Source of the DNA: a virus | Virus record (IMG/VR): IMGVR_UViG_3300009177_000023 | Span: 1 to 36,695 of that record | DNA: 36,695 nt | Reading direction: 5' to 3' (one strand) | Part shown: one piece after another, positions 3,190 to 33,186 of the stretch | Layout of the letters: each line of letters opens with the position of its first letter | Position numbering within the stretch: position 1 is the stretch's first letter | The notes under the pieces: model-generated | The model's database searches: none | What the model was told of the DNA's origin: nothing | Seen by the model: only the letters and a program-made list of their open reading frames with translations | Position numbers and translations under genes: made by a program

Positions 3190-3344
3190 AGCTCGACGCT
3201 GAGAAGTGGCGCGAGTGGGACCGGAAGCTGGCGCGCCTGCTGGAGGCTGACGCCTGGACGCCCGAGCCCACGCTGCTGGGCGGGCTGCACGGAGAAATAG
3301 AGCTCGAAGCGGTCGGCGCGGTGCCGGCCGTTGAATTGGATTAA
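3186..3344 (+). CDS. Small hypothetical protein (52 aa; below the ORF-track cutoff)
   Basis: GTGA overlap at 3186. Translates VKLDAEKWREWDRKLARLLEADAW...AVELD. The TAA stop lies inside the conserved ATTAACGG motif. Confidence 0.4.
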   Translation: MKLDAEKWREWDRKLARLLEADAWTPEPTLLGGLHGEIELEAVGAVPAVELD

Positions 3345-3358
3345 CGGTCACTGCGACC
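3339..3358 (+). promoter_or_regulatory. Copy D of conserved motif (gATTAACGGTCACTGCGACC), 17 nt upstream of ATG 3376
   Basis: 19/20 identical to the copies at 19131 and 23091. Followed by agaaaaaggaaagaacc-ATG. Confidence 0.7.
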
Positions 3359-3375
3359 AGAAAAAGGAAAGAACC

Positions 3376-4290
3376 ATGCTCAAGATCACCAAGGCCGCCG
3401 ATCCCATCGAAGTGAAGCACGTAGTTGTCTGAATCCACGGAGACCCCGGCATCGGGAAAACATCCCTCGGGTTCACCGCCGAGAAACCCCTGTGCCTGGC
3501 GTTCGACAGCGGCGTGTACCGCGCTGGCGCCTTCCGCGGGGACTGCGTCCAGATCGAAAGCTGGCGCGACGTCTCAAACATGACCGCCGCCGACTTCGCC
3601 GGCTACTCGACGGTGGTCGTTGACACCGCGGGACGCGCCCTCGATTGCCTGTCGGCGACGCTGATGGCCGAGGATCCCAAGAACAACCGCGGCGGCGCGC
3701 TGTCGCTGCAAGGGTTCGGCGCCCTGAAGAGCACCTTCTACGGGTGGTTGTCGAACCTGAAGTACATCGGCCTGGACATCGTGCTGATCTGCCACTCGGA
3801 CGAGCAGCGCAAGGGCGACGAGCTGATCACCCGCCTCGACATGCAGGGAGCCTCGAAGAACGAGGTGTACAAGAGCGCCGACATGATGGGCTCACTGTCG
3901 ATGGTGAAGGGCAAGCGAGTGCTCAACTTCAGCCCCACGGACGTGGCGTTCGGCAAGAACCCTGGCCAGCTCCCAGTGCTGACCGTTCCTGACTTCGTTC
4001 CCGGCGCGCCCTCGGGGTTCTTGGCGAAGGCGATCGCCGACACGAAGGAGGCCCTCAATCGCCTGTCGGCCGAAGGCATCGCCCAGGCCGCCCTTCAGAC
4101 GACGTGGGCCGAACGCATCGGCAAGGCGAGCACCAAGGCCGAGTTCGACGCCCTGGCAGCGGCGGGCAAGGCAGAGGGCGCCCCCAAGGCCGTCGGTGCG
4201 CTGCTAACGAAGGCAGCGAAGGCCAAGGGCTTCGCCTGGGACAAGGCAGCCGATGCGTTCGCGCCCGTCGCCGAGAAGAAGGCGGCGTGA
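3376..4290 (+). CDS. AAA_24/Sak4-like RecA-fold ATPase (recombination), interrupted by an in-frame TGA at 3430-3432
   Basis: ATG 3376 has an AAGGAAAG Shine-Dalgarno. Translation gives MLKITKAADPIEVKHVVV*IHGDPGIGKTSLGF (Walker A), then VVVDTAG (Walker B) and DIVLICHSDEQ. The track ORF 3514..4290 lacks Walker A. Confidence 0.7.
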
Positions 4291-4291
4291 C

Positions 4292-4939: not shown

Positions 4940-4947
4940 GCTTGGCC

Positions 4948-5178
4948 ATGCCCCGACGGCGATCCAAATTAAGAGGCATGGCACCGTCGGGGAACCCGTT
5001 GCTCGCGCGAATGACGGCCGCTGAAAAGCTGCTGGCCCAGCACGGCGATCGCCTGGACGGACACGATCGCCAGCTGCGCGAGCTGAACCTTGACCTGTCC
5101 CTGCTGGCCGACATCGTCCACCGCGCCAAAGCCAGGGCCGCCGATGTGCGAGCAAGGCGCCAAAAACGCACGCCATGA
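4948..5178 (+). CDS. Small basic coiled-coil protein (76 aa)
   Basis: ATG 4948 (or ATG 4978), in frame within track ORF 4705..5178. The sequence LLAQHGDRLDGHDRQLRELNLDLSLLADIV looks helical. Confidence 0.4.
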   Translation: MPRRRSKLRGMAPSGNPLLARMTAAEKLLAQHGDRLDGHDRQLRELNLDLSLLADIVHRAKARAADVRARRQKRTP

Positions 5179-5312
5179 TCTGTTTTGAAACTCCGCGCCG
5201 GAACGTCCCGCGCGCCGACTGAGAAAGGACGCGCGATCGCGCTGTCGTGGATGCGGCATGCCCTGTGCTGAGGCGGCCGTGCTTGTTACCAACCCCACCC
5301 ACTGGAGGGACC

Positions 5313-6305: not shown

Positions 6306-6465
6306 ATCGTTGACGGCGGGATACGTTTCCGTTACTTCTTTTCCATCCCGTCAATGAGCCCCGAAGAACGCACACGCCCACCGCTTCTGCATTGGCGGGA
6401 TCCTATGCGGGCAGCTGGCGTGTGCGTCCTCCGCGGCATCCACCACGACCCATAGGAGCAGCCAC

Positions 6466-6663: not shown

Positions 6664-7343
6664 CCCCCGCGGAACTGGCGACAGTCATCGAGAGCCACCG
6701 CAAGTGGCGATTCGGTGAAGAGGGCGGATCCCGCGCCGACCTGAGCGGCGCCAACCTGAGCGGCGCCGACCTGAGCGACGCCTACCTGAGCGACGCCAAC
6801 CTGAGCGACGCCAACCTGAGCGGCGCCGACCTGAGCGGCGCCAACCTGAGCGGCGCCGACCTGAGCGACGCCTACCTGAGCGACGCCAACCTGAGCGGCG
6901 CCAACCTGAGCGGCGCCGACCTGAGCGGCGCCGACCTGAGCGGCGCCAACCTGAGCGGCGCCGACCTGAGCGACGCCAACCTGAGCGGCGCCAACCTGAG
7001 CGCGATCCGTGAGGACCTTGTCCAGGTGCTCAACGCCGCGCCGGCCGAGGTTCCGGGGCTGTTGGCGGCCCTGCGCGCTGGCAAGGTCGAAGGGTCCACG
7101 TACGAGGGCGCCTGCGCCTGTCTCGTCGGGACCCTCGCCAACGTCCGCGGGTGCTTTTACCGCGAGCTGGGCGCCTTGCGTCCCGACCCGGACCGCCCCG
7201 CCGAACGGTGGTTTCTCGCCATCACCGAGGGCGCCAAGCCCGAGAACAACCAGGTCGCGAAAATCACCGAGGGTTGGATTGTCGAGTGGCTGGCCAACGG
7301 CCCCGCTGCCGTCCAGGCGCCGACCGCCGAGGTGTCCGCGTGA
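6660..7343 (+). CDS. Pentapeptide-repeat protein (possible DNA mimic) with a Cys-containing C-terminal domain
   Basis: 18 consecutive A(D/N/Y)LS(G/D/A) pentapeptides, followed by ...[24 protein letters not shown]... Confidence 0.85.
6735..7004 (+). repeat. 18 tandem 15-bp units GCC-(G/A/T)AC-CTG-AGC-G(G/A/C)(C/G), near-identical at the nucleotide level
   Basis: Read directly. Only the first base of codon 2 and the last two bases of codon 5 vary. All synonymous positions (GCC, CTG, AGC) are invariant. Confidence 0.9.
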
Positions 7344-8479
7344 TCCGCTGGCTCGGCACCAAGAAGGTCAAGCTCGCGACCATCGTCCTGCCGGGCGGGT
7401 TCGCGAAGCGGAAGAAGGAGCAGCACGTCCGCGACCTGGCGGCGTCCATCGAGCGCGGTGGGGTGATCAGTCTGCCCGTGGTGCAGGACAAGCCCCGCAA
7501 GCTGGTGGCAGGCGGCGACCGACTCGCGGCGCTGATGCTGAACAAGGTCATGTCGCACGAGGTGCGAATCGTCCGCGGCACGGCCCAGGAGCTTGAGGAG
7601 CTGATGCTGGAGGAGAACCTCCTGCGCCGGCGCAGCGACGACTATGCCGCGATGACCAAGCGACTGGTGGAGCTGCGCACGGGGGACATCGAGGCGGCCG
7701 ACCGAGCGGAGGTTGTCGCCGAGGAGGCGGCCGGTCGCGCCATCATTGAGCGCTTCCTGGAGGAAGCCGTCGACGACGGATTACTGGTCGCCGCGACCGC
7801 AAATGACGAGCCCGCCCCGGTGGGCCGCCCCAAGACGGCGAAGGGCAAGGCCCGCGAGCAAATCGCGAAGGAGACGGGCAAGACCCCCGAGGCCATCCGC
7901 CAGGCCGAGAAGCGGGCGGTGGCGAAGGAGCGAAAGGCCGCGGAGCAAGAGCAGAACCCGTTCACCGACGCCGGGGAGCCGCTCGCGCCACCGGTCGAAA
8001 CGTACGGACTGCCCCTATTGACCGCCGAGGACGCCTACCAAGTCGTCATGGCCCAGGCTGCCCTTGAGAAGGTGGAGGGGTTCCTGAACAAGGCCCTGGC
8101 CTCCGTCGCGAACCACGCCGGGGCCGACTCGCTGGCGGCGCGCATCTGCAACGACGTTATGGCCGCGCTGGGCAAGCTCGCCGTCGACGTGCGCGCCGCC
8201 TACCCACGGGCCGTCTGCGCGGCCTGCAAGCTCATCCCGGCGCGCCGGGCGAAGTGCAAGGCCTGCGCGTCGACGGGCTTCGTGGGCGTGACGGAGTGGC
8301 TCAACGCTCCCGACGAGCTGCGCCTGGGCGGTGACCAGGCGAAGGTCTCCGACGGCAAGGGAGGCTTCATCCCCTACGCCCGTGAGGTCGCGAAGGAAGA
8401 GAAGGCGGCCGAGCGGAAGACGGAACGCAAGCTGCGCGTCGAGCTGGACGACGGCACCGTGTTCGAAGGGGGCGCGTAG
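7340..8479 (+). CDS. ParB N-terminal-domain-like protein with a C-terminal CxxC...CxxC cluster
   Basis: GTGA overlap at 7340. [15 protein letters not shown]...[22 protein letters not shown]...[11 protein letters not shown] resembles the ParB/Srx fold. The C-terminus carries [17 protein letters not shown]. Confidence 0.6.
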
Positions 8480-8481
8480 CC

Positions 8482-8772: not shown

Positions 8773-8774
8773 CC

Positions 8775-10226: not shown

Positions 10227-10522
10227 ACCAGCGAACGTTCGACGCCGTCGACAACGCACAGGCCAAAGCCCCCGGTGACCTCGACTACCTAGACGTGGCG
10301 CTGATTGAGCTGGATGACGAGCGGCTCCGCTTGGAGGCCCTGTTCCAGCAAACGCACGGTGCGCACTCTAGCTGGGTGGCGGAGGCGGAAAAGCTCCGGA
10401 AGGAACGCGACCTCCTCCGTGGGGTCATCGCCGAAATTCGCGGATGGGCGACCAGTCGCATGACGACCGACAACCCGGGGCCGGCGGAATGGTTACTGGA
10501 AATCACCGCGGTGCTCAAGTGA
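10223..10522 (+). CDS. Hypothetical helical protein (99 aa)
   Basis: GTGA overlap at 10223. In frame within track ORF 10169..10522. Confidence 0.45.
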   Translation: MNQRTFDAVDNAQAKAPGDLDYLDVALIELDDERLRLEALFQQTHGAHSSWVAEAEKLRKERDLLRGVIAEIRGWATSRMTTDNPGPAEWLLEITAVLK

Positions 10523-10965
10523 CCGTCGAGGACTTGCAGCTACTCGGCCCCCGCCAGCGCCAGGTGATGGAGCTGCGCCTGGCCGGCCTCGGGCAGCGTG
10601 AAATCGCCGGCAAGCTCGGCCTCACCGCCAACAACGTGGCTCACCTGGAATACCTCGTGCGCCAGCGCCTGAGCTCGCGTGACGTCCCCCGCCGGCCCTA
10701 CGGCTGGCAAAGCCTCTGCCGCCGTGGCCACCAGAAGACACCGGGGCAGAAGTGCGTCACATGCTGCGCGGCTGCCAACGAGAGCCGACGACAGAAGGGG
10801 TTCGCACGTGCGGCAGCCAGGGAGGCCGCAGAGGCCGCCGCTGAGTCCCCCGAGGCCGCCCGGACCCGCATCGCCTGGGAAGTGTCCACCGGCAAGCGCT
10901 GTGGTCACCAGCTGTTCCGCGGCCCCTGCTGCCTGCTGCGCCCCTGCGCGGACCACGGCCGATGA
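10519..10965 (+). CDS. Sigma-70 region-4 / LuxR(GerE)-type HTH regulator with Cys-rich C-terminus
   Basis: GTGA overlap at 10519. LGPRQRQVMELRLAGLGQREIAGKLGLTANNVAHLEYLVRQRL fits the pattern. The C-terminus contains CRRGH...CVTCC...CGH...CC...C. Confidence 0.6.
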   Translation: MTVEDLQLLGPRQRQVMELRLAGLGQREIAGKLGLTANNVAHLEYLVRQRLSSRDVPRRPYGWQSLCRRGHQKTPGQKCVTCCAAANESRRQKGFARAAAREAAEAAAESPEAARTRIAWEVSTGKRCGHQLFRGPCCLLRPCADHGR

Positions 10966-12061: not shown

Positions 12062-12285
12062 AGCCCCACCCGAGCGACCCAGCAGCTACGCACGTGGTGC
12101 AATACGAGCCCGCCGAGCTGCCCGGAATCGCCACCATGCATTGCGGGGCGACGGTGGCGATCCAAAGCGATGGGTCGACGGTGCCTGCGGGGTTCGATTT
12201 CTACCTACCCGAGGACCGCGCAAAGGCGACCTGTCTCGCCTGTCCGGTGCTGGCGGGCCTGCGGACGGAGACAGCCGCCAAATGA
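12058..12285 (+). CDS. Hypothetical protein (75 aa)
   Basis: ATGA overlap. In frame within track ORF 11767..12285. Contains CLACP. Confidence 0.45.
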   Translation: MKPHPSDPAATHVVQYEPAELPGIATMHCGATVAIQSDGSTVPAGFDFYLPEDRAKATCLACPVLAGLRTETAAK

Positions 12286-12599
12286 ACCCGCCCCCCGGTC
12301 CCATCGTCGCCATCTACGAGCTAACCCGCGAGTGGACTACCTACCGCTGGCTTTGCGAACCCTGCCTCGCTGCCACCAAGGCCGAGGGCTGGACGGCAAA
12401 GTACCGCGCTGCCGTTGCCCAGGCCTGCGACCGCTGCCCGGCTGTCCCCTCACCCCACCAGAAGCCCGACGGCTCAGTCGCCTACATCCCAACGTCCCGC
12501 ACCTCCCGCCTCCCGACCCGCGCGGAGTGCCCACCGCCCCGCGTGCTCCCGCCGTGGCCCAAGCCCAAGGCGCGCCCCCCGCAGCGAAAGGCAGCATGA
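12282..12599 (+). CDS. Hypothetical Cys- and Pro-rich protein (105 aa)
   Basis: ATGA overlap. Contains CEPC...CDRCP followed by a Pro/Arg-rich tail. Confidence 0.45.
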   Translation: MNPPPGPIVAIYELTREWTTYRWLCEPCLAATKAEGWTAKYRAAVAQACDRCPAVPSPHQKPDGSVAYIPTSRTSRLPTRAECPPPRVLPPWPKPKARPPQRKAA

Positions 12600-12850
12600 G
12601 AGCCGACCAGATCCGAGCGTCCGCCCTGTGGCCATCCGAGGACTGCTCGTCCGAGATGTGCGACGAGGTCTCCGATAAGTGGTGTCCCATCGAGGACGCG
12701 TACCTGTTGCTCAACGAGGCGACAGGCGGACGCGCGACCTTGGTGTACAACCGGCCGGACGCCAACGTGAAGTGGCTCCACACGGTTCCGGTCGAGAAAG
12801 CCCACAAAGCATTCGCCGACGCGCTAATTAACGGTCGCACCGACCGCTAA
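12596..12850 (+). CDS. Hypothetical protein (84 aa)
   Basis: ATGA overlap. The last codons (ALINGRTDR) are encoded by conserved motif copy A. Confidence 0.45.
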   Translation: MRADQIRASALWPSEDCSSEMCDEVSDKWCPIEDAYLLLNEATGGRATLVYNRPDANVKWLHTVPVEKAHKAFADALINGRTDR

Positions 12851-12888
12851 CTGTGATGAGTTGCCAGGCCCGCAACCCGGCGTACAGT
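12826..12888 (+). promoter_or_regulatory. Composite element A: AATTAACGGTCGCACCGACC, 37 nt, then TACAGTCGCC; -35-like TTGCCA at 12861-12866 with a 16-nt spacer
   Basis: Same architecture and spacing as the elements at 19131 and 33124. The -10-like box ends 8 nt before ATG 12897. Confidence 0.65.
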
Positions 12889-12896: not shown

Positions 12897-13493
12897 ATGG
12901 GACAACTGCGCAACGGAGACGGCGTCACAATCAACGAAATCACGGTTTCGCATCGAGCGCTGGCCAACAGCCCGCACGATGCGTGTGTGTTCGACCCGCG
13001 GGAGGGTATCCGTGGCGTGAACATTGGGGGCAAGCTCTGGGCTGCCAGCGAGGACACGGTGATTCGCACCGTCAACGTGTCGTTCGATGGGGTGTCGGTC
13101 GAATGCAACACCGAGTTCCTGATGATGTTGAGCGACTTGGAGTTCCGAAAGGAATTCGTCGAGAAGTGCAAGGCGGAACGCGCCGCCGCCGAGGCCGCCG
13201 AGACGGTGCCCCACGTCTGGGAGGCCAGGCCCGAGAAGGACTTCGCCAACCCGGGCTCGCGCAGCTGGCAGTGCTTCAAGTGCCAGGGCTGGGTGTCGGT
13301 GCAGCTGGCCACGGAAGGCGCGGCGGAGCTGGTGGCCGAGATGGACGCCGGCAAGGGGCCGCTCGGGTGCCGTGGCATCCCGCCGCAGCCGGAGGCGCCG
13401 CCGTCCGAGGCCGAGGACCGCGTCACCAGCAACGTCGCCGTGGACGTGAAGAACGCCGCCAAGAAGGCGAAGCGAAAGGGCAAGGCGTCTTGA
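12897..13493 (+). CDS. Hypothetical protein, first gene of the packaging module (small-terminase role possible but unsupported)
   Basis: ATG 12897 (MGQLRNGDG...) lies in frame within track ORF 12861..13493. Contains CFKCQG and a Lys-rich C-terminus. Confidence 0.5.
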   Translation: MGQLRNGDGVTINEITVSHRALANSPHDACVFDPREGIRGVNIGGKLWAASEDTVIRTVNVSFDGVSVECNTEFLMMLSDLEFRKEFVEKCKAERAAAEAAETVPHVWEARPEKDFANPGSRSWQCFKCQGWVSVQLATEGAAELVAEMDAGKGPLGCRGIPPQPEAPPSEAEDRVTSNVAVDVKNAAKKAKRKGKAS

Positions 13494-14115: not shown

Positions 14116-15611
14116 GCCTCGCTGCCCTGGCCGACGAGCTGGTCAGCTACGAGCCAACGTTGCCGCGCTGGAGCCTCAAGGCTTTCTGTGGGGACCACGC
14201 GAAGCAATGGGAGTTCGCCACGTCGCCCAGCATGCGGCGTCACCTCCAGTGTGCTCGCCAGTCCGGCAAGAGCTGGATCGTTGACGGCCTAGTCGCCGAC
14301 CGCGCGCAGCTCACGCCCAACTCCCTGCACTTCGTCCTCGGCCTGAACGGCGTGGCCGTCCGTATGAACAACTGGGTTCCCATCTGGAAGCGCACCCTCG
14401 ACAAGTACCGCGTCGAGCGCCGCGACAACCAGCAGATGATGCTCAGCGAGTTCCCCAACGGGGCCCGTGTGATCTTCACCGGCACGGACGACTTGCGCCA
14501 CGTTCGCAACTTCCTCGGCAACCGGCTGCCCAAGGGCTCCACGTTCGTCATCGACGAATCGCAGGACCAGCCGGAAGACACCATGCGGTACCTGCTGGAC
14601 CAGGTCCTGGTGCCGATGATGACGCCGGACACGCTGCTGATCGAGGCGGGCGTGCATCCCGACATGCCGGCGGGGCGCTTCTACCGCGACGCCTCCGACG
14701 CGAGCTGGGACCACTTCGGCTGGGGGCGCTTCGACAACCCGCACACCCCCGAGGCCCGCACCACGCTGGCCAACCACCTGCGCGACCACCAGTTGACAGA
14801 GGCCGATCTCGAGTTCGACCCCGAGCACCCGCCCGAGGGCGGCAAGCTGAGTATCGTCCTCCAGATTCTCCGCGACTGGTTCAACCGCGGCGTCTACGAC
14901 CCGAGCGCCCGGACCTACTGGTACCGCGAGAGCGTCAACGCGTACGACCCGGTCACCCCGGCCTGGGCGACGTCCTTCGTCAGCCCGCCGGGGTTCGGCC
15001 CGGTGCGCTTCGCGGAGCCGTGGCCCGGCGTCGACACGTTCGCGGTGGCCATCGACCCAGGCGGCTCGGACCCGTTCGGCTTGCAGGTCATCGGGTGGGG
15101 CAGGACGCACCGGCGTATCCAGCACCTGGTTGACTGGGTGGCCCCCCGTGGCGCGAAGCTGTCTTGGGGCGATGTCATGCGCACCCTGGGCGTGCTGGTG
15201 GCCCGGCGCTACCCGACGGTCCTGTGGCGCTACGACACCACGTCTGACACCGAGCTGGACACGTTCGGCAACGAGTACGGCGTGCCCGTCATCCGTGCAG
15301 CCAAGAAGGCCGACCGCGACGGGCAGATCCGACGCAACAACGACCTCTTGTCTGACGGCACGCTGGCCGTCATGCGCAACAGCAACCTCGCCACCGACTA
15401 CATCAGCGCGCAGCTCGTTGACGGTGCCTGGGGTGCCTATCACCCGACGGCCTCAGAGTGCGTTCGCTACGCCGTCGGTGACTTCTGGGAGACGCGCCCC
15501 GCGCCCGTTCCCCCGCCGCGCGCCATGGACCCCTTGGACCGCGAGGCCGCTCGAATGGCCGAACAACTCAAACGTGGCGGCCGACGGTTCCCCGGCCGAG
15601 GTGACCGGTAA
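14112..15611 (+). CDS. terL: Terminase large subunit
   Basis: GTGA overlap at 14112. Walker A CARQSGKS, Walker B STFVIDESQ, and a C-terminal RNaseH-like nuclease region FAVAIDPGGSDPFG. Lies directly upstream of the portal gene. Confidence 0.85.
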   Translation: MSLAALADELVSYEPTLPRWSLKAFCGDHAKQWEFATSPSMRRHLQCARQSGKSWIVDGLVADRAQLTPNSLHFVLGLNGVAVRMNNWVPIWKRTLDKYRVERRDNQQMMLSEFPNGARVIFTGTDDLRHVRNFLGNRLPKGSTFVIDESQDQPEDTMRYLLDQVLVPMMTPDTLLIEAGVHPDMPAGRFYRDASDASWDHFGWGRFDNPHTPEARTTLANHLRDHQLTEADLEFDPEHPPEGGKLSIVLQILRDWFNRGVYDPSARTYWYRESVNAYDPVTPAWATSFVSPPGFGPVRFAEPWPGVDTFAVAIDPGGSDPFGLQVIGWGRTHRRIQHLVDWVAPRGAKLSWGDVMRTLGVLVARRYPTVLWRYDTTSDTELDTFGNEYGVPVIRAAKKADRDGQIRRNNDLLSDGTLAVMRNSNLATDYISAQLVDGAWGAYHPTASECVRYAVGDFWETRPAPVPPPRAMDPLDREAARMAEQLKRGGRRFPGRGDR

Positions 15612-18790: not shown

Positions 18791-19159
18791 GTGGGCAAGC
18801 GCCCTGTCCCGAAACAGCTGACCCCGTTCAAGAAGGGGCAGAGCGGCAACCCGACAGGGCGGCCCAAGGTCGCCCGCGAGTTCGCAGAGCGCATGCGCGA
18901 GGCCTTCAACACCCCAGATCCGGTCCACAAGCGATCGTTGACGGACGTGGTGTTGAAGCTCGCCTTTGACGACTTCAGCCCCAAACAGACCTGGGCCATC
19001 CAGTTCATTGCGGCGTACGGCATCGGCCTGCCCAAGCGGTCACTCGACGACGAGACCGTAAAACAGATGGCCGCGGAGCTGTTCGAGAAGGCATTGGACG
19101 AAGCCCGCAAACGAAAGGCGGCAGAGGTGCAATTAACGGTCACTACGACCGATAAGTAG
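18791..19159 (+). CDS. DUF5681-like protein (FKKGQSGNPTGRPK motif)
   Basis: The N-terminal motif F-K-K-G-Q-S-G-N-P-x-G-R-P-K is characteristic of DUF5681 phage proteins. The last codons (QLTVTTTDK) are encoded by motif copy B. Confidence 0.5.
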   Translation: MGKRPVPKQLTPFKKGQSGNPTGRPKVAREFAERMREAFNTPDPVHKRSLTDVVLKLAFDDFSPKQTWAIQFIAAYGIGLPKRSLDDETVKQMAAELFEKALDEARKRKAAEVQLTVTTTDK

Positions 19160-19193
19160 CTCGAATTGACGGCCTGAAAGGCGCGGGTACAGT
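19131..19193 (+). promoter_or_regulatory. Composite element B: AATTAACGGTCACTACGACC, 37 nt, then TACAGTCGGC; -35 TTGACG at 19166-19171 with a 16-nt spacer
   Basis: TTGACG-N16-TACAGT is sigma70-like. It lies upstream of the major capsid gene with a leader of about 100 nt. Confidence 0.7.
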
Positions 19194-21333: not shown

Positions 21334-21975
21334 GTGGCCGGCGTCCCACTTGAATCACTGGTCACCAAGGCCCGCACCGCTGCGAATATGCAGGTGGGTG
21401 GGCCTTGGGACTCGGACGAGTGGGATGCCGCCATCAATGACGCCGTGACGGCGTTCTACGTCGACTGTGCCGCGGTCAACAACGCCTGGCGGGTGACGCG
21501 CCTTCCGTTCAGCATCACGACCCAGGCGACGCCCTACACGGCGCTCCCGTCCGACTTCGCCAACGTGTTCAAGGTGACAAAGGACCCCGGCCAGTCGAAC
21601 CGGTGCGAGGTGTATCGGTCGGGCGACGAGCGGGCCGGTGAGCGCACCTACCGCGTCGAGGGCGTGAACCTGTGGATCGACCCGCTTGAGCAGTCGGTGG
21701 GCAGCTACGAGCTGCGCTACAACCCGTTGCCCGCCGTCCTCACCCCCGCCGTGAATCTCGACCAGGAGCTGGCGCCACACCGCGAGTATTTCGAGCTTCA
21801 CGCCGCAATCAAGTGTCTGGTGTCGGAGGAGTCCTCGCCGGCCGCGCTGATGGCGCTGTTCAAGGCCTGCCAGGAACGCGCGCAGACGTGGGCCAAGGGC
21901 CAGCGCAGCTCCGATCCGGTGCGCCCGCGTGACGTGCGCCCCCGCGGCTACTGGCCGGGGCGCTTCGTCCGATGA
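21334..21975 (+). CDS. Head-tail adaptor-like protein (213 aa)
   Basis: Position between the capsid and tail genes. The size is similar to podovirus adaptor or tubular-A proteins. Assigned by inference only. Confidence 0.4.
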   Translation: MAGVPLESLVTKARTAANMQVGGPWDSDEWDAAINDAVTAFYVDCAAVNNAWRVTRLPFSITTQATPYTALPSDFANVFKVTKDPGQSNRCEVYRSGDERAGERTYRVEGVNLWIDPLEQSVGSYELRYNPLPAVLTPAVNLDQELAPHREYFELHAAIKCLVSEESSPAALMALFKACQERAQTWAKGQRSSDPVRPRDVRPRGYWPGRFVR

Positions 21976-23006
21976 GCGACGTCCCCCGCGGCAGGCCGAT
22001 TGACCCAGGCCTCGGCAATCTCGCCGACGCCCAGAAGGCTGCCCGCGACGCCGAGATTATCCCCGAGCGGGCGCCCAAGCTGCGCGGCCACGCCATTGGC
22101 ACGTTGGCCGAGCTCCGCAAGACGCTCGGGGACATCACCGGCAACCGCGGACCCGCGTCCACCATGCTCAGCGGCTACGAGACGGCCCAGGACGGCGGCG
22201 AGGGCACGTTCGTGTGGCACCCGACCAGCGTCGACGCCGACAACGGCGGCAAGGGCGTCAACGGGCGCGTCCAGGTGGCCAACGTGAAGGTGGGACGGTG
22301 GCACCGGACCAGCCCGCCGGCACCACCCGACACGACCGGGCGACTTCTGCGCCTGACAGGGCTGACGGGGACCAGCCTGGCGGTGTTCCCGGGCACCAAG
22401 TCCTACCGCGTGCGCATCTGGGGCGGAGGCGGCGGCGGCGGCGGGGTCATCAGCGCAGCTTGCGCGGCCGCAGGCGGCGGCGGGGCCGGGGCGCCGGCAG
22501 AGCGGGCGGGCACGTCCATCCCTTCCACCTGGAACTTCGTCCTTGGCGCAGCTGGGGCCGCCGGATCGACAGCCGGCGGTGACGGTGGCAACGGCGGCGA
22601 CTCAACGTTCACCAGTGGCTCGGGGACCGTCACGGCGCCAGGTGGAAGCGGCGGCAAGGGCGACGCCGCTGGCACCGCGGGAGCCACCAGCAGGGCGCGC
22701 AAGGGTGGGGCCGGCGGCGCGGCGTCGACAGGCGGGTCCGTGTTCAACGGGGGCGGCGCACCGGGGCTGCCGGCTCACATGGTGCGGATCACCTTCGGCG
22801 ACACCATGGCCACGTCAGGCTCGGGCGGCAGCTCGTCGCTTGCCGGCGGCGGCCTCGGGCACGAGCGCTCTGTCACGGCCTCCGCTGCCGGCAATGACGC
22901 CGTCGGGTATGCAGCTGGCGGCGGCGGTGCAATCGACGACGGCACGGCAGCGCGAGCTGGCGGCGTTGGCGGACCAGGCTACGGAATCCTGGAGGAGTAC
23001 GCGTGA
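21972..23006 (+). CDS. Glycine-rich-domain tail fibre/spike-like protein
   Basis: ATGA overlap. SGYETAQDGGEGTFVWHP is fibre-N-terminus-like. Then RIWGGGGGGGGV (22422-22445, including (GGC)5) and repeated GGxGG blocks, typical of phage glycine-rich fibre domains. Confidence 0.55.
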   Translation: MSDVPRGRPIDPGLGNLADAQKAARDAEIIPERAPKLRGHAIGTLAELRKTLGDITGNRGPASTMLSGYETAQDGGEGTFVWHPTSVDADNGGKGVNGRVQVANVKVGRWHRTSPPAPPDTTGRLLRLTGLTGTSLAVFPGTKSYRVRIWGGGGGGGGVISAACAAAGGGGAGAPAERAGTSIPSTWNFVLGAAGAAGSTAGGDGGNGGDSTFTSGSGTVTAPGGSGGKGDAAGTAGATSRARKGGAGGAASTGGSVFNGGGAPGLPAHMVRITFGDTMATSGSGGSSSLAGGGLGHERSVTASAAGNDAVGYAAGGGGAIDDGTAARAGGVGGPGYGILEEYA

Positions 23007-23010: not shown

Positions 23011-23055
23011 TAATTACAGGTCGCTACGACCGCTAATTCACCCTGTCTTTACAGT
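23011..23055 (+). promoter_or_regulatory. Degenerate motif copy F (AATTAcaGGTCGCTACGACC) flanked by ccgctaatt repeats, with TACAGT at 23050-23055
   Basis: 18/20 match to the motif consensus. GCTAATT occurs on both sides. The TACAGT box lies 19 nt downstream of CGACC. Confidence 0.45.
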
Positions 23056-23090
23056 GAAACGGTTTCGCGCCCACAATTGCGTTACACCGC

Positions 23091-23110
23091 AATTAACGGT
23101 CACAACGACC
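23091..23110 (+). promoter_or_regulatory. Copy E of conserved motif (AATTAACGGTCACAACGACC), 16 nt upstream of ATG 23127
   Basis: Same position relative to the Shine-Dalgarno and ATG as copy D (ggaaaaggggtctcaa-ATG). Confidence 0.7.
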
Positions 23111-23126
23111 GGAAAAGGGGTCTCAA

Positions 23127-26198: not shown

Positions 26199-28010
26199 AT
26201 GGCGGCAGTTCCCGAGGGCTACACGCCACGCGTCGACGCCAACGGCGTCGTGTCCGGCTACTACGACCCCAACGGGGTGCTGGTCGGCAACATCTCGGGC
26301 GCGGTCAAGAACCCGGACGGGTCCATCACCTATTCGAACGGTGGCGGATCGTTCACGACCTATCCTGGTGGCACGTCGAAGGCGACGCAGGCCACTGGCG
26401 GTTTGACGACCACCTACGGCGCCGACGGCACCCGGACCACCACCGACGCGAGCGGCGCCGCGGCGTCGGCCGACGCGATCCAGGCGGCAAACAACGCGAA
26501 CGCCGGCCAGCTTGGCGCGGGCGGGCTGCTAGGACTGGGCAGCAATCCGGTCACGGGGCTCATCCACGCGGCGGCGGCCATCCCCAAGGCCGTCAAGACC
26601 GAGCTTACCGGCGACGACGGCAGCGCCGCTGCCGCCGACAAGGCCGCCATTGACACCGCCGCCCACAACCTCGGGCAGTGGGATCCCAACGCCAAGAACA
26701 CCTTCGACTTCGGCAATCAGCAGGGCGTTGCGACGCCCGTTGCGAATGCGCCCACGGTTACGGCGCCGCCACCGGGACAGTCGCCCGCCTCGCTCGACTT
26801 CAACGCGGGACTGGTGACGCCGGGGCAGATCACCTCAACGCCCAACGTGGGCTATGCCCCCGTGGTCTCCGCTCCCCAGCTCGGGGCGGCTCCCCAGATC
26901 AGCGCAGGCAGCGCGAGCGGTTCCGGCGTCACTGCCACCAACGTTGCCGTGCAGCGAGCGGACAACGTTGGCGACATTGCCGCGGGCGGCGTCGGTCGCG
27001 ACGCGCAGCTCGACGCCCTGGGCGGGCTCAAGGATGCGGCGGAGGGCAAGACGCCCAGCGCGGCGGAATGGCTGATGCGAAAGGGCATCGACGAGAACGT
27101 TGGCGCGGCCTACGGTCTCGCGGCGTCGTTGCAGGGACGCAACCCCGGCATCGCCCTGCGTACGGGCGCCATCACCGCCAAGGACGCAATCGCGAAGAGC
27201 GCGGCCGACATGGCTGCCCTGCGCGCCACCGAGATCGCGAAGGCGCGCGAGGCCTATGCCACCCTCGGCACCAGCATCGCGGCCCAGGACCTGACTGCAA
27301 TGCAGTCGAACCAGTCCAAGGACCTGACGCTCTCGGTGACCAACCTCCAGGAGCAAATCAAGGTCCTCCAGGGCAATCAGCAGGCCCAGCTGCAAGCGGG
27401 CATGGCCACCGCGGCGAACGCCACCGCAGCGTCGATCGCAACGCTCCAGGCGCAGACCAACGTCGCTGTCGCCAACCTCCAGACGTCGACGGCGCGGGAC
27501 ATCGCGAACCAGACCGCCCAGCTCGACGCCTCGAAGGCCAACGCCGCCAACGAGATCGCGGTCAACATCGCGAACGCCAACAACCAAATGACCGCGTTGA
27601 CGGCGAACCTCGCCGCGCAGACCGCCGCGAACGACAGAAACGCCGCCAGCGAGACGGCCAAGGCGATCGCGCAACTCGACTCCCAGACCAAGATGCTGAT
27701 GCAGCAGCAGGACCAGCTCTACGACGCGGCCAAGACGAACGCCGCGAACCAGGTCAGCGTCAACAACACCAACGCCACGAACGCCACCAACGTCAGTATC
27801 AGCAACGCGGGCCTTGAGGAGCGGAAACAGGCCGACATGGCCGCCGCGGACGCGAAGCTCAAGGAGCTGGGACTACAGTCGCTGATCGCCCAGCTGAACG
27901 CGTCCATCTCTGTCGCCAAGACGGACCAGGAACGGCAGGCGGCCGAAGATGCGTTCTGGGGATCGTTGGCGGGGACCGCGGGAAAGCTTGCGACGGGGAA
28001 GCCGGGATGA
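26199..28010 (+). CDS. Internal virion / ejection-like protein (603 aa), Ala/Asn/Gln-rich coiled-coil C-terminal half
   Basis: Gly/Thr-rich N-terminus (GxxTYxxG repeats), then a long low-complexity helical region. Position after the nozzle gene. Confidence 0.5.
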   Translation: MAAVPEGYTPRVDANGVVSGYYDPNGVLVGNISGAVKNPDGSITYSNGGGSFTTYPGGTSKATQATGGLTTTYGADGTRTTTDASGAAASADAIQAANNANAGQLGAGGLLGLGSNPVTGLIHAAAAIPKAVKTELTGDDGSAAAADKAAIDTAAHNLGQWDPNAKNTFDFGNQQGVATPVANAPTVTAPPPGQSPASLDFNAGLVTPGQITSTPNVGYAPVVSAPQLGAAPQISAGSASGSGVTATNVAVQRADNVGDIAAGGVGRDAQLDALGGLKDAAEGKTPSAAEWLMRKGIDENVGAAYGLAASLQGRNPGIALRTGAITAKDAIAKSAADMAALRATEIAKAREAYATLGTSIAAQDLTAMQSNQSKDLTLSVTNLQEQIKVLQGNQQAQLQAGMATAANATAASIATLQAQTNVAVANLQTSTARDIANQTAQLDASKANAANEIAVNIANANNQMTALTANLAAQTAANDRNAASETAKAIAQLDSQTKMLMQQQDQLYDAAKTNAANQVSVNNTNATNATNVSISNAGLEERKQADMAAADAKLKELGLQSLIAQLNASISVAKTDQERQAAEDAFWGSLAGTAGKLATGKPG

Positions 28011-28012
28011 TG

Positions 28013-28351
28013 CTACTTGCGAACGCCGTAATTGACGTTGACGCGAGGGCGCGCCTGACAGGCCGCAAGCTCCGTCTCAAGCTGCGCCACCTTGGCAGCG
28101 GGATCGACTGGCGGCGCCGCCTGCGCGGCACGCTCGGTCGCCAGGTCGCGGAGAAACTTGTCCGGATCGAAGTCCTTGGAGCCCGCCGTTTCAAGGGCCA
28201 TGCGGAGTCGGGTGTACTCGGCGACGTCGTGGACGTCGGTCACGATCCTGGAAATCGCGCGATAGGCCGGCACGCCCACCGCGATTACCCCCGCCAACGT
28301 CACGACGAGGGTCACTTGTCGAACACGCCTCTCCCACGTCTCAAGGTCCAT
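28013..28351 (-). CDS. Antisense moron: 112-aa single-pass membrane protein
   Basis: The minus-strand ATG at 28351 gives MDLETWERRVRQ-VTLVVTLAGVIAVGVPAYRAI (TM), then a helical C-terminus. High GC3 on the minus strand. The overlapping + ORF 28007..28414 is Arg-rich and looks non-coding. Confidence 0.65.
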   Translation of the reverse strand: MDLETWERRVRQVTLVVTLAGVIAVGVPAYRAISRIVTDVHDVAEYTRLRMALETAGSKDFDPDKFLRDLATERAAQAAPPVDPAAKVAQLETELAACQARPRVNVNYGVRK

Positions 28352-28358
28352 GTAACGA

Positions 28359-28386
28359 ATGATAGCCTCGGCCAATTCGCGGTCAA
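28359..28386 (-). promoter_or_regulatory. Sigma70-like promoter TTGACC-N16-TATCAT for the antisense gene; the -10 box ends 7 nt before the ATG (leaderless candidate)
   Basis: On the minus strand: ttgacc (28386-28381), gcgaattggccgaggc, tatcat (28364-28359), tcgttac, then ATG (28351). Confidence 0.55.
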
Positions 28387-28406
28387 GCCGCCCGGTAAGG
28401 TGACCC

Positions 28407-29927
28407 GTGGCTGAGCTTCCCGGCGCCGGGGTGGCAGTGAACTTCCCCGCGGCTCCCGAGTGGGAAAAGCGGGTGACGGCTCCGTCTGTCACCGACACGA
28501 CAAAGGCCCTGTCGCCTGTCCAGGTCGCGGTAGAGGGTCAATCCCTCGCCCAGGCCGAGGAGGAAAAGGCGGCCGTCGACCAGAAGACGGGCCTCGAAAC
28601 CGACAAGGCGACGATCGAGGCCCAGGGCGCCGCGGCCAAGGAAGCGCAAACCGCGGCGACCATCGGCGAGAAGGACCGCGTCGACGCAGCCGAGACGGTC
28701 AAGATCGCGAAGCGCGCGGACGAGCTGCGCGCCGCGAACGAGGCGATCCGGGCAACGCCCGCGCCTGCGCTGTTCGCGGACCGCAAAGGCTGGGAAAAGG
28801 CCAAGCTCGCGATGGGCTTCGCGCTCGCGGGCCTGGGCGACGCCATCAACGCGAAGGCCAGCGCCGTTCTCGGGCGCGCGGCTGGGCCCTCGGCGGTGAC
28901 GGACATCATCAACATGGACCTGGAGCGCCAGCGCGAGAACATCAAGAAGCTGACCGACAGCCAGATCATGGCCAAAGAGGGCGTCAAGGACGCGATCGCC
29001 GCCCGCGAGCTCGCGCTGACCAAGGTCGACCTGAAGGGCGCGGCCCTGTTCAACCTGGCGAGCCAGCACGTTGAGACACTCCTGAAGGCTAAGGGCATGG
29101 ATGCGCCCGCGATCGCTGGGAACGAGGCCAAGCTCGCGCTCGATCGGGCCGAGGTGGAGAGCAAGAAGCGCGCAGTGGCAGGCCTCGCCAGCGAGCACAC
29201 GCGCGCTGGCGCCAAGGTTGAGGTGACGACGCGCGCGGCGTCCGAGTCCGACAAGGGTGCGCCGAGCGCCCGCGCGGCGCCTGTTCGCGGGCCGGACGGG
29301 ACCATCACCTACGCGCCAACCGGCGAGGCCGAGAAGCTGAACGAAGGCGTCGCCGCGGCGCTGCGGATCGACAAGATCTTGCACGAGCGCCAGCAGCTCA
29401 TCCGCGAACACGGCGAGCGGGTTATCAACCCGCACTCCCCCGAGGGTATGCGAATGAAGCAGCTCGCCGTCGAGTCCGGCGAGGCCCTGCGGCAGTTCGA
29501 CCAGATCAACAACAGCGACGAGGGCCAGAAATTGGCCGCCAAGATCGCGGGAGGGTCCGGCGTCGGCGTTGACCTGAACCCGGCGGCGTCCGTCGACTAC
29601 CTCGCCGAGTTGCGCAGGGGCGTCGCGCGGACCATTCGCGACCGCATCAAGGTCGGCTCTGGTCCCGCCGAGCAGATGCGCCCGGGCGCTCCCGCCGTAC
29701 CGGCTGCGCCCACTGCCGCGCCCGCCGCTGCGCCTGCCCCAACAGCAGCGCCCACGCCGCCGATCCCGTCGACGGCGCCCATGGTTCCTCCGAAGCCCGC
29801 GGCGCTGCCACGGCGCGCACCGGGGCCGCTGAGCCCATCCGACCGTGAGGCGCTCATGTGGGCGAAGGGGCCGGGTCGGGGGACGCCGAAGGCCGAAGAG
29901 ATCTTGAAGGCGCTGGGGGTGAAGTGA
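28407..29927 (+). CDS. Internal virion / ejection-like protein (506 aa)
   Basis: GTG 28407 with an AAGGTG Shine-Dalgarno. Ala/Glu/Lys-rich helical protein with a Pro/Ala-rich C-terminal region. Confidence 0.5.
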   Translation: MAELPGAGVAVNFPAAPEWEKRVTAPSVTDTTKALSPVQVAVEGQSLAQAEEEKAAVDQKTGLETDKATIEAQGAAAKEAQTAATIGEKDRVDAAETVKIAKRADELRAANEAIRATPAPALFADRKGWEKAKLAMGFALAGLGDAINAKASAVLGRAAGPSAVTDIINMDLERQRENIKKLTDSQIMAKEGVKDAIAARELALTKVDLKGAALFNLASQHVETLLKAKGMDAPAIAGNEAKLALDRAEVESKKRAVAGLASEHTRAGAKVEVTTRAASESDKGAPSARAAPVRGPDGTITYAPTGEAEKLNEGVAAALRIDKILHERQQLIREHGERVINPHSPEGMRMKQLAVESGEALRQFDQINNSDEGQKLAAKIAGGSGVGVDLNPAASVDYLAELRRGVARTIRDRIKVGSGPAEQMRPGAPAVPAAPTAAPAAAPAPTAAPTPPIPSTAPMVPPKPAALPRRAPGPLSPSDREALMWAKGPGRGTPKAEEILKALGVK

Positions 29928-31846: not shown

Positions 31847-32391
31847 GCTGGATGAAGGGCAAGCCCGCCGCGCGTCCCTCGACGCCCCCGCACGTCGACG
31901 TGATGAAGGCGATCGAGGCGCTGCACACGATGGAGAAAGCCGGCCCCCTGCCCCCTCCGATGCTCTACCTACAGCAGCAGCTCCCCGCCGTGGCCTTCGA
32001 CCGCTGGGGCACGCCGCTCCCGTTGTCCATCGCAAAGCAGGAGCGTCTCGACCGCCTGGTTGCCGTGATGGCGGACCCGTACCACCGCGGGCGCGAGCTA
32101 CTGCTCTCGGGCTACCTCGACACCATCGAAGCGAGCGCCATCCGCGACGGGCATCCGCAGGTCTACCAGGCGCTGCGCACGCAGGTGGAGGCCGAACTCG
32201 CAATGGCCGGCCCGCCGCTCCCCGTGTGGTCGGAGGGCGTCCTGGGCGTGTTCTTCGGGCGAGACGCTGCGCTTGTCTACAACGAAGGCCACGAGGCCGA
32301 GAAGCCCAAGGCCGGCGGCCAGTACGCCGGCAAACCACCGCTCCCAACGCCTGCTGATTTCTCGGGCGAGACCCACTTGAAAGGACCCTGA
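31843..32391 (+). CDS. Hypothetical virion-module protein (182 aa)
   Basis: ATGA overlap; high GC3. Confidence 0.5.
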   Translation: MSWMKGKPAARPSTPPHVDVMKAIEALHTMEKAGPLPPPMLYLQQQLPAVAFDRWGTPLPLSIAKQERLDRLVAVMADPYHRGRELLLSGYLDTIEASAIRDGHPQVYQALRTQVEAELAMAGPPLPVWSEGVLGVFFGRDAALVYNEGHEAEKPKAGGQYAGKPPLPTPADFSGETHLKGP

Positions 32392-32393
32392 AC

Positions 32394-33125
32394 ATGGACT
32401 TCACTCGATCAACTTGGGAAATGGTCATGGGGTCGCTGACCCCCATGACAGGGGCGATTTCCGGCACCACGCCGAAGCTGTCGACCTGGATCAAGGCCGT
32501 CGGGCTGGAGTCGTTCACGGCCACCCTTGCGACAACCGGCACCGTCAACGGAACCTGGACCGTCCAAGGGTCCAACGCCGACGACGCCACCAAGCCCGCC
32601 GAGCTGATCGTGGAGCTTGGCACGTACCCGTCACAGCCGACCTACCCGACGGGCGTGGCGTCGAGCGGCGACGTCGTACAGCCGACGTACGGGTTCCGGT
32701 ACATCCGGTTCACGTTCACCCCGAGCGCGGGCGCGGGCAATGCGACCGTGACGTTCAAGGGGAAGATGACCGGCGCGCCGATGGACATGGCACAGCTGCA
32801 CCACGGGAGTATCCACCTGCTCGTCGCCGCGGCTGACACGCTGGCCGGGCAGTTCGCGCTGGAAGGCTCCAACAACTGGTCGGGCATCCTCCAGGGCCAG
32901 AAGGCCAAGGGCCAGGCCTTCGCGGACGGGAACTGGACGCCCTACCTGCCATCGCCCGCCATTGCCGTCCTCGTTGCGTCGACGGGGCAAGACCGAATGG
33001 TCGACCTGGGGATCACCACCGACGGCGCAACCGGCATCATTCGTTGCGGCGCGGTTCGGTTGAACTTCACTTGGACGGCGGGATTCGGCAGCCCGAGCGC
33101 ATACGGAGCCTACAAGGCAGCTTAA
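32394..33125 (+). CDS. Hypothetical beta-sandwich virion protein (243 aa)
   Basis: Two similar halves (WTVQGSN...FRYIRFTFTP / FALEGSNNW...GAVRLNFTW). The stop lies inside motif copy C. Confidence 0.5.
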   Translation: MDFTRSTWEMVMGSLTPMTGAISGTTPKLSTWIKAVGLESFTATLATTGTVNGTWTVQGSNADDATKPAELIVELGTYPSQPTYPTGVASSGDVVQPTYGFRYIRFTFTPSAGAGNATVTFKGKMTGAPMDMAQLHHGSIHLLVAAADTLAGQFALEGSNNWSGILQGQKAKGQAFADGNWTPYLPSPAIAVLVASTGQDRMVDLGITTDGATGIIRCGAVRLNFTWTAGFGSPSAYGAYKAA

Positions 33126-33186
33126 TTAACGGTCGCGCCAACCTGTAATTGGCGCGAATTGACGGGGCGATCTTTGCCCGTACAGT
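33124..33186 (+). promoter_or_regulatory. Composite element C: AATTAACGGTCGCGCCAACC, 37 nt, then TACAGTCGGC; -35 TTGACG at 33159-33164 with a 16-nt spacer; includes an 8-bp hairpin cgcgccaa/ttggcgcg
   Basis: Spacing identical to elements A and B. The hairpin at 33134-33156 could terminate the upstream operon. Confidence 0.7.

Follow-up and report, generated by a model that had tools for sequence, protein, structure and literature searches.

A 27-bp palindrome repeated at gene-block boundaries of a phage genome and its candidate ParB/KorB-like reader

The virus record IMGVR_UViG_3300009177_000023 was analysed over its full 36,695 nucleotides (nt), a stretch that we call the window, and it carries a 20-nt motif, AATTAACGGTCRCNNCRACC, that an earlier note on this DNA had seen at the borders between gene blocks and had taken for a phage-specific regulatory code. 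What kind of element is this motif, which protein reads it, and what would reading it do? The analysis was entirely computational, its basis being the sites and their statistics, their conservation, the geometry of the neighbouring promoters, the ParB fold of one phage protein and the covariation of site and gene. As described below, the motif belongs to a palindrome of about 27 base pairs (bp) present ten times in the window, its most likely reader is the orphan ParB-like protein encoded by 7340..8479, and a role of this protein in the control of the late operons, modelled on KorB and its OB operators on plasmid RK2, is the reading that we cautiously favour.

The repeated palindrome and the promoters beside it

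The motif occurs exactly at 12826, 19131, 23091 and 33124 and with one mismatch at 3339, always on the + strand; when at most three mismatches were allowed, we counted 12 matches in the window, compared with 0.03 expected from shuffled sequences. The 10-mer ATTAACGGTC, whose recurrence had been pointed out earlier, does have five exact copies, and the repeated motif is a genuine element. The earlier note had also placed every copy on the + strand. This is true of the exact 10-mer, but minus-strand matches of the 20-mer overlap copies A and F (listed below) and the site at 7779, which indicates that the 20-mer belongs to a larger imperfect palindrome; its orientation only marks the half that is better kept.

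The operator is a two-fold symmetric, imperfect site of about 27 bp with the consensus AATT-W-M-CGGTC-R-N3-Y-GACCG-K-W-AATT, in which the CGGTC and GACCG cores are 10 bp apart, centre to centre, and of which the 20-mer represents the better-conserved left half plus the core. Over 60 half-sites (30 distinct sites) the half-site reads A-A-T-T-(A/T)-(C/A)-C-G-G-T-C-R, where T3, T4, G8, G9 and C11 are invariant or nearly so, and at 19293 the relative L007 has a perfect palindrome, AATTAACGGTCGCAACGACCGTTAATT. When the window was searched with a strand-symmetric model, TTNNCGGTC-N5-GACCGNNAA, at a cut-off of at least 12 of 14 positions, 10 sites were found against 0.175 expected (200 Markov simulations, maximum 1), those at 175-201, 7779-7805, 15587-15613 and 28374-28400 being additional to copies A to F. 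The ten sites are listed here with their match to the model where it was noted and with the corresponding copies in related loci (L numbers).

Site X0, 175..201, AATTATCGGTCGCGTCGTCCGCAAATT: weaker palindrome (13/14) in a low-GC region before the first + strand genes; a similar site lies in L003 at 4790.
Site D, 3339..3365, GATTAACGGTCACTGCGACCAGAAAAA: ends 10 nt before ATG 3376 of an AAA_24 recombination-type ATPase gene, with no promoter downstream; copies in the same position in L007 (9172) and L008 (9827).
Site X1, 7779..7805, GATTACTGGTCGCCGCGACCGCAAATG: within the ParB-like gene 7340..8479, in the variable linker between the N-terminal domain and the helix-turn-helix (HTH), residues 147-155.
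Site A, 12826..12852, AATTAACGGTCGCACCGACCGCTAACT: 14/14; runs into the final codons of gene 12170..12850; the small terminase (terS)/packaging genes also have a site just ahead of them in L007 (19295), L008 (19814), L021 (5160), L102 (5831), L104 (15521) and L105 (6107).
Weak site, 15587..15613: 12/14; terminase-large/portal junction; its right half, GACCGGTAA, is good and overlaps a TAATG stop/start; this junction also has a site in L005 (7271) and L102 (8583).
Site B, 19131..19157, AATTAACGGTCACTACGACCGATAAGT: 14/14; overlaps the last codons of gene 18791..19159; kept in L002, L006, L003 and L021.
Site F, 23012..23038, AATTACAGGTCGCTACGACCGCTAATT: 13/14; directly past the stop of 21972..23006, covering the -35 place of the TACAGT box at 23050-23055, from which it is 18 nt away both here and in L002.
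Site E, 23091..23117, AATTAACGGTCACAACGACCGGAAAAG: 14/14; about 40 bp downstream of the same TACAGT box and ending 9 nt before ATG 23127 of the gene for a virion protein of 1020 amino acids; E-type copies in L002 and L108.
Weaker site, 28374..28400, AATTCGCGGTCAAGCCGCCCGGTAAGG: 13/14; junction of genes 28007..28414 and 28407..29927.
Site C, 33124..33150, AATTAACGGTCGCGCCAACCTGTAATT: 12/14; overlaps the stop codon of 32394..33125; L008 has a C-type site plus promoter at 3071.

Nine of the ten sites are no more than about 35 nt from a gene boundary (X0 being counted for its position near the start of a doubtful open reading frame, ORF), and X1 is mid-gene. The claim that the motif never falls inside a gene body must thus be given up, A and B also overlapping the last codons of the genes upstream, and copy F, formerly placed at 23011-23030, is actually at 23012-23031. 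The 20-mers of D and E do end, as had been said, 17 and 16 nt before their ATG codons. Site, spacing and promoter are kept in metagenomic relatives, and the element is limited to this phage lineage, in keeping with the phage-specific character proposed for it. A metagenome scan with the exact 20-mer gave 45 loci, among which the only relatives are L108, L113/L143, L123 and L148; the others are single matches on contigs that show no detectable relation to the window, many of low GC, and look like chance.

Promoters were predicted by sequence, both strands being scanned for TTGNNN-N16-18-TANNNT with at least 9 of 12 matches to the consensus TTGACA-N16-18-TATAAT. On the + strand there were three matches, exactly those that follow A, B and C:

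P_A, 12861..12888, + strand: TTGCCA-N16-TACAGT; the -35 begins 8 bp past site A, and the predicted start is at about 12895.
P_B, 19166..19193, + strand: TTGACG-N16-TACAGT; precedes the major capsid gene (19294), with a conserved leader of about 100 nt.
P_C, 33159..33186, + strand: TTGACG-N16-TACAGT; lies before a Shine-Dalgarno and the ATG at 33214.

At A, B and C alike the palindrome ends 8 bp before the -35 and, with a predicted start about 7 nt past TACAGT, its centre lies at about -56; each -35 hexamer matches the consensus at 5 of 6 positions. The site-promoter spacing is kept in L002, L003, L004/L007, L008, L021 and L102, one relative having 11 bp more, that is one helical turn, and when the capsid-operon junctions of five phages were aligned, palindrome, -35 and -10 stood out as three distinct blocks of conservation next to coding sequence that varies. 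The sigma70-like -35/-10 arrangement suggested earlier for A, B and C is therefore supported, no other + strand promoter of this type scoring as high as these three. The distances reported with it were also right (37 nt from the motif to TACAGTCG(G/C)C, and TTGCCA or TTGACG 16 nt upstream of the TACAGTCG box). A second box, AATTGACGG, is present at +33 in B and C as described, but is most simply the -35 hexamer plus A/T-rich upstream bases, and relatives have ATTTGCCAA, ATTTGACAG and AGTTGACGA in its place. No promoter lies beside the two weaker sites at 15587-15613 and 28374-28400, as is the case for D.

Some features of the transcripts expected from these promoters are worth recording. The probable small terminase gene, 12897..13493, has its ATG 8 nt past the TACAGT -10 box and no Shine-Dalgarno, and the terS mRNA from P_A is predicted to be leaderless, with a start 1-2 nt before ATG 12897; L102 has the same terS promoter arrangement and the same N-terminus, MGQLR. 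The major capsid leader (19194-19293) contains three CTGCGAAAC-type repeats that are kept in L002, L006 and L021, and GAAACGGTTTC (23056-23066) immediately follows the TACAGT box downstream of site F; these sequences may bind a second regulator or form an RNA element.

A symmetric element at the 3' ends of gene blocks and in 5' leaders might act as an RNA hairpin in processing, 3'-end protection, termination or antitermination, on the model of the RNase III sites that lie between T7 gene blocks. The changes from GGTC/GACC to GGAC/GTCC and GGCC/GGCC do keep pairing, and the folds of A, B and E are a little more stable than those of shuffled sequences (z about -2.1 to -2.5). The pair counts over the 30 distinct sites point instead to protein binding, as the earlier note had supposed. 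Only the GGNC/GNCC core (4 pairs) and the outer TT/AA (2 pairs) are always paired, the columns between them are unpaired in 10-20 of the 30 sites (one third to two thirds), the NN and outer columns lack pairing in 14-20, and in 11 sites the closing R/Y pair is lost. Because the invariant TT/AA is set off from the core by unpaired variable positions, we prefer two bipartite half-sites read by a dimer to a helix, and the symmetric base changes are equally expected of a dimer-read site. RNA folds are weak, from -5 to -10 kcal/mol, with D at -5.2 kcal/mol (z -0.84), X1 at z 0.05 and C folding off the palindrome axis; no U-tract follows any copy of the motif, and a search of the element against Rfam gave no match. 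An intrinsic terminator or structured RNA was rejected for its weak interrupted pairing and for lack of a U-tract and of an Rfam match, and we regard an RNA hairpin of any of these kinds as very unlikely.

The motif could also be the promoter of a phage single-subunit RNA polymerase: D and E lie 16-17 nt before start codons, and it resembles the T3 promoter, AATTAACCCTCACTAAAG, at 11 of the first 13 positions. No such polymerase was found by Pfam or PHROG among all ORFs of at least 500 amino acids and most smaller ones, and the genome appears complete (see below). Besides, positions 14-15, the equivalents of the T7-type -4/-3 in the melting region, are variable, and the element is a palindrome in which both spacer and core change symmetrically from one lineage to another. 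A T3/T7-type promoter was rejected on these grounds, and we give this explanation next to no weight.

The low-GC stretch around X0 (119-463, before the first clear + strand gene) also contains a half-palindrome at 360-388 (kept in L008), AATTGG repeats and two CTTTGACGACGC direct repeats. It could be a regulatory or origin region; ORF 119..463 has low GC at third codon positions and is perhaps not a gene.

Candidate readers of the palindrome

The gene proposed to encode the reader is the following:

7340..8479, + strand: orphan ParB-fold protein of 379 amino acids.

This protein consists of an N-terminal ParB/sulfiredoxin (Srx) domain (GGDRLAA, EENLxRR), a GRP arm, an HTH (about residues 167-204) and a C-terminal CxxC...CxxC domain. 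PHROG ParB-like families match it with E=2e-6, and a profile of 29 homologs matches the PDB entries of ParB (4umk, E=3.6e-5), Noc (7ol9) and Spo0J (1vz0). Its AlphaFold (AF2) model, with a predicted local distance difference test score (pLDDT) of 84.8, has high-confidence helices at 167-179 and 183-204 that form the central HTH; the Pfam KorA/TrfB HTH matches residues 168-199 weakly (E=0.005, below the curated cut-off). The top 31 Foldseek matches belong to the ParB family save one sulfiredoxin, which has the related Srx fold (probability 0.99-1.0), and those in PDB include Myxococcus xanthus ParB-CDP, Noc, PadC and KorB (8qa8, E=8e-3). The closest matches are pNOB8 ParB, Noc, M. xanthus ParB, Caulobacter ParB and Spo0J, and the Foldseek alignments to Noc-DNA, ParB-parS and KorB cover 190-235 columns. 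Residues G58, G59, D60, R61, A64, E92, N93, R96 and R97 are invariant in the ParB-like family, as are the motifs GxxRxxA (GGDRLAA) and ENxxRR and the G-R-P just before the HTH. The protein thus shows the N-terminal ParB/Srx fold with GxxRxxA and ENxxR that defines the ParB superfamily. With this full-length architecture the family is large and unannotated (322 clusters at 50% identity, E<=1e-30), and no relatives were found when representative bacterial genomes were searched with it.

The superfamily is also marked by a palindromic site that is often in or beside the gene of its binder, as is known for parS, and here this is X1, together with lineage-matched copies in relatives. X1 uses a TTA leucine codon, one of 4 among 788 leucine codons, which argues for a constraint at the DNA level. 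Equivalents of X1, specific to each lineage, were found in L010, L012, L013, L021, L019/L020, L102, L103, L104, L152 and L153, and in the family as a whole GAATTACCGGTCnnnGTGACCGGTAAT simply translates into the linker peptide ELP(V/A)x(V/L)TGN. L152 has two copies inside its ParB-like gene (1526-1548), one of them in the part coding for the N-domain, and L153 (10394-10420), a distant member of the family at a locus without late genes, has the linker variant AATTACGGGGAC-AGT-GTCCCTCTAATT. Immediately upstream of the ParB-like gene lies a pentapeptide-repeat protein gene (6660-7343, Pfam E=2e-42); this pairing is kept in L007/L017, L008 and L010, and in the integrated form the pentapeptide-repeat gene is the first prophage gene past the attachment site.

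The internal copy varies between lineages together with the dispersed copies. Both are of the GGTC-N5-GACC type in the window, L102, L104 and L152, GGTC-N4-GACC in L010/L011, GGAC-N5-GTCC in L012/L013, GGCC-N5-GGCC in L103 and TGGCCAAGTTGGCCA in L019/L020; in L021 the dispersed copies are of the GGTC-N5-GACC type and the internal copy has a GGCC core. For L019/L020 the internal linker site was read first, and a search with it gave 3 more copies of the 15-mer core, two intergenic and one over a gene start. Covariation of the central core in our site alignment (A2) is partly built in by the site-selection rule, and the GGAC/GTCC variant rests on a comparison that did not impose complementarity. 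The recognition helix of the ParB-like protein, residues 183-193, is near-constant in the main group, TPEA(I/V)R(Q/S)AEKRA, and differs in the other groups (RTPEAIRSATRRA, TTPEAVRAAEKRA, TTPEAVRQREKRA and KTPEAVRWAERRA). In the 20.7 kb examined of L015, which shares the AAA_24 module, there is no ParB-like gene and there are no sites.

The two readers named by the earlier note do not fit and were rejected by comparison across relatives. The sigma-r4/LuxR-like protein 10519..10965 has a recognition helix that is highly variable among phages sharing the site (TANNVAHLEY, GRQSVYSTLS and SRITVNQYAR). The HTH protein 2041..2424 has distinct operators of its own, since its gene is flanked by the palindromes GTAACGGTT-N6-AACCGTTAC and GGAAACCGTTACGGTTTCC, overlapping a TTGACG-N17-TATAAC promoter, and in L008 these operators become GTCACGGTT with the main site unchanged; no homolog was detected in the examined loci of L010, L012, L013 and L021, all of which bear the site. 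The palindromes might nevertheless be operators of one of these two or of a host factor, acting as a class-I-type late activator near -56 in the manner of P2 Ogr or Mu C. Such a position agrees with the palindrome centre at A, B and C, a sigma-r4-like gene lies upstream of the late genes in the window, L007/L017, L008, L010, L021 and L104 (L105 having a weaker HTH match), and the HTH 2041 operators have a TAACGGT core in common with the site. The divergent helices, the shift of the HTH 2041 operators in L008 and the undetected homologs all oppose it, as do the 5/6 matches of the -35 hexamers, unusual for activator-dependent promoters, and a host factor would leave unexplained why the lineage variant is copied inside the ParB-like gene. 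We hold another dimeric regulator to be quite unlikely, and to judge from these sequence comparisons the ParB-like protein 7340..8479 is most likely the best candidate.

Both rejected candidates are of interest for themselves. Around 2041..2424 there is a second operator set at 2425-2510 (also at 2028-2040, 2160-2207 and 6306-6345), with GGAAACCGTTACGGTTTCC just upstream of the -35 and GTAACGGTTCAATATAACCGTTAC over the -10 of the TTGACG-N17-TATAAC promoter, and a similar sequence, GTTTCCGTTAC, occurs in a promoter-like stretch past the integrase gene; this set is probably an early or immunity switch. The sigma-r4/GerE-like protein 10519-10965 has a Cys-rich C-terminal half (CxxGH…CxxC…GKRC…PCxLLLPC) that is kept in relatives while its HTH varies, and it may be a separate late regulator.

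Control of the late operons and the setting of the genome

We put at somewhat better than even the chance that the ParB/KorB-like phage protein reads the 27-bp operators as a KorB/OB-like network controlling the late operons. In this mechanism, drawn by analogy, a dimer of 7340..8479 would bind the 27-bp sites, its HTH making the contacts to CGGTC, and the invariant GRP arm that precedes the HTH may, like an AT-hook, recognise the AATT flank through the minor groove; this last idea draws on the known behaviour of AT-hooks and on the conservation of GRP. The protein would load at the sites, possibly as a nucleotide-dependent clamp as in KorB/OB of RK2. At the promoter-proximal sites A, B and C, which precede the packaging, capsid and final gene blocks, RNA polymerase would be occluded or gated, the junction and intragenic copies serving as distal loading or roadblock sites. 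A single protein could in this way control all late operons together and keep them silent in the lysogen or early in infection. Since the three promoters look near consensus, repression seems more plausible than activation.

Several observations weigh against this mechanism. A purely promoter-proximal model does not cover six of the ten sites, which have no adjacent TACAGT box, and a palindrome centre at about -56 is also the classical position of an activator. The ParB-like protein has GGDR for the canonical GERR, the first Arg and the Glu being replaced, so binding or hydrolysis of cytidine triphosphate (CTP) may be altered or lost, and no KorA-like partner was identified. L007 and L008 have dispersed sites without an internal copy, indicating that the latter is common and not obligatory. 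The link between protein and site consists of co-occurrence, covariation and family precedent. Finally, in several relatives the ParB-like gene sits in a replication module (SNF2/DEAD helicase, primase and a DnaA_C-like gene), a setting that fits origin binding as well as a regulatory role.

The ParB-like protein might thus bind the palindromes with a main job other than transcription, as an origin-binding protein or initiator, in partition or DNA organisation, or as a shield from host SMC-type defence, and the sites would be at junctions only because a 27-bp palindrome fits coding sequence poorly. With lambda O/ori-lambda and SPP1 G38P/oriL, too, the binder's site lies inside its own gene, as X1 does in the linker, and phage N15 has dispersed sop centromeres; the replication genes next to the relatives' gene and the location of nine of the ten sites at junctions, six without a TACAGT box, are further points in its favour. 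For an origin, however, there is no AT-rich unwinding region or iteron array next to 7779-7805; for partition, no ParA/CbiA-type ATPase was found in Pfam scans of the window ORFs, and a phage that integrates (it has an integrase, and L017 is an integrated relative) would not need it. That the gap to each of the three strongest promoters is 8 bp, and that it persists in relatives, one of them with 11 bp more, is hard to explain without a link to transcription, and we consider such a role unlikely. A bolder form of the KorB-like mechanism, in which the orphan protein of the ParB-CTPase fold is a sliding-clamp master switch for all late operons with about ten parS/OB-like loading sites, might tie late transcription to replication as well, along the lines of the T4 gp45 clamp, since the gene lies in a replication module with its own site. 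We see this as possible though rather improbable.

The window is 67% GC, with nearly all genes on the + strand, and its end and start adjoin in L003, so it represents an essentially complete genome. Recognisable genes encode the AAA_24 ATPase, a tyrosine integrase, the pentapeptide-repeat and sigma-r4/GerE-like proteins, the large terminase and an SU10-type major capsid protein; the minus-strand genes at 35095..36648 had no Pfam matches, and no immunity repressor was recognised. Related genomes of about 37 kb are present in IMG/VR and metagenomes. A nucleotide search with the packaging/capsid region (13000-20000) against GenBank phages gave no match, and hardly anything more came from searching viral contigs with the portal and tail proteins. 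In L017 a relative (1-9270) is integrated beside a MoaE/ThiS gene of a 109-kb contig, where the flanking host peptidase M3 gene shares 82% identity with Polyangia (Myxococcota) genomes, and the site-bearing relative locus L123 is on a 707-kb contig. The host clade of L017 is therefore likely Polyangia, judging from that flank, and these are temperate phages of uncultured soil myxobacteria. In the window an in-frame TGA (3430-3432) interrupts the AAA_24 (Sak4-like) gene 3376..4290 just before Walker A (…KHVVV*IHGDPGIGKT…), the equivalent codon being TGC (Cys) in L007 and L008; a nonsense mutation, a sequencing error and a readthrough codon are all conceivable.

The genomes are mosaic. Homology with L004 ends at 12889, and a two-gene block from 33210, 83% identical, is found elsewhere in L003 without the site, so that the site-plus-promoter units coincide with mosaic junctions. 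The element might accordingly be thought a linker for homologous recombination between related phages, marking module boundaries and having no regulatory role, since nucleotide homology with relatives breaks at or beside the sites. This would leave unexplained the dyad symmetry, the symmetric lineage variants, the internal copy and the fixed promoter spacing; we find it highly improbable, and recombination at shared sites is likely a by-product rather than a function.

Prophages are reported to carry orphan ParB-like proteins in abundance, with roles that are for the most part unexplained (PMC12704722). The present case is a concrete one, with a defined 27-bp site, ten mapped copies and three promoters of fixed geometry, and its natural specificity variants (spacers N4/N5; cores GGTC, GGAC and GGCC) pair with recognition-helix variants in what amounts to a ready specificity-swap set. 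If the KorB-like mechanism holds, silencing by ParB-family clamps extends from conjugative plasmids to integrating phages and shows how temperate phages of uncultured Polyangia coordinate their late genes; should the clamp be a master switch, a large unannotated ParB-like family would gain its first concrete function. The linker-site rule, by which the peptide ELPVxVTGN predicts dispersed operators, could serve to annotate regulons in hundreds of metagenomic phages.

Comparison with known systems

With ParB-parS and Noc-NBS the phage system has the fold and a palindromic binding site in common. It differs in that the phage protein has GGDR for GERR and neither a ParA nor a ParA-binding motif, that the element integrates, and that the sites are at promoters and junctions genome-wide rather than in a centromere cluster. 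The motif by which type I ParABS proteins bind ParA, (L/F/I)G(K/R)G(L/F/I), is defined in PMC12704722; it does not occur at the N-terminus of 7340..8479, there is no ParA among the window ORFs by Pfam, and an integrase is present.

A single short site recurring along the operons, in the small gaps between genes, recalls the stoperators of L5, which are asymmetric 13-bp sites bound in an orientation-dependent manner by a monomeric immunity repressor that silences the whole genome from short intergenic regions. The phage sites, in contrast, are two-fold symmetric, with perfect palindromes in relatives, and nothing suggests that their reader is the immunity repressor. In the five strongest copies of the window the better half faces upstream, which is too few copies, and not independent ones, for an orientation rule. 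As in P2 and Mu, the promoters of several late operons are each preceded, at a constant distance, by a single dyad-symmetric site. The late promoters of P2 (Ogr) and Mu (C/Mor) have a poor -35 and depend on small zinc-finger or Mor-type activators, the P2 site being at about -55, whereas here the -35 hexamers are near consensus and further copies lie away from promoters.

A phage precedent is that of the Cluster O mycobacteriophages (Corndog), which have more than 30 copies of a 17-bp palindrome, TGTTCGGNNNCCGAACA, and encode a protein with a ParB-like domain; the authors suggested a dimeric regulator and noted recombination between sites (PMC4351075). Most of those copies lie away from promoters, the palindrome was not assigned to any reader, and the authors doubted a transcriptional role (PMC4351075). 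Phage-specific dispersed palindromes with a 3-bp spacer, mostly near gene boundaries, and a ParB-like gene are found in both, and here the sites are explicitly linked to the ParB-like gene and to promoters.

KorB of RK2 is a ParB-family CTP-dependent clamp that silences many operons, and its palindromic OB operators are either 4-10 bp upstream of promoters (the proximal class) or far away (PMC11790492). The phage protein resembles it in combining a ParB-fold N-domain with an HTH, and the phage sites in being palindromes repeated in many copies across the replicon; copies A, B and C, 8 bp before the -35 of predicted promoters, fall within the 4-10 bp of proximal OB, and there are other copies far from promoters. 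The similarity of 7340..8479 to KorB is at the fold level only, and its C-terminus is a Cys4 zinc-ribbon-like module. The phage site has 27 bp with an AATT flank compared with 16 bp for OB, and KorB-like CTP binding and repression are assumed by analogy. Furthermore, the phage element integrates while RK2 is a plasmid, and no KorA homolog or ParA/IncC was found in the phage, in which GAAAC(N)GTTTC-type sequences, resembling the operators of HTH 2041, occur after the TACAGT box, at 23056, and in the P_B leader. Altogether, dispersed phage palindromes with an unlinked reader were already known (PMC4351075), and what would be new here is a KorB-like operator network on an integrating phage.

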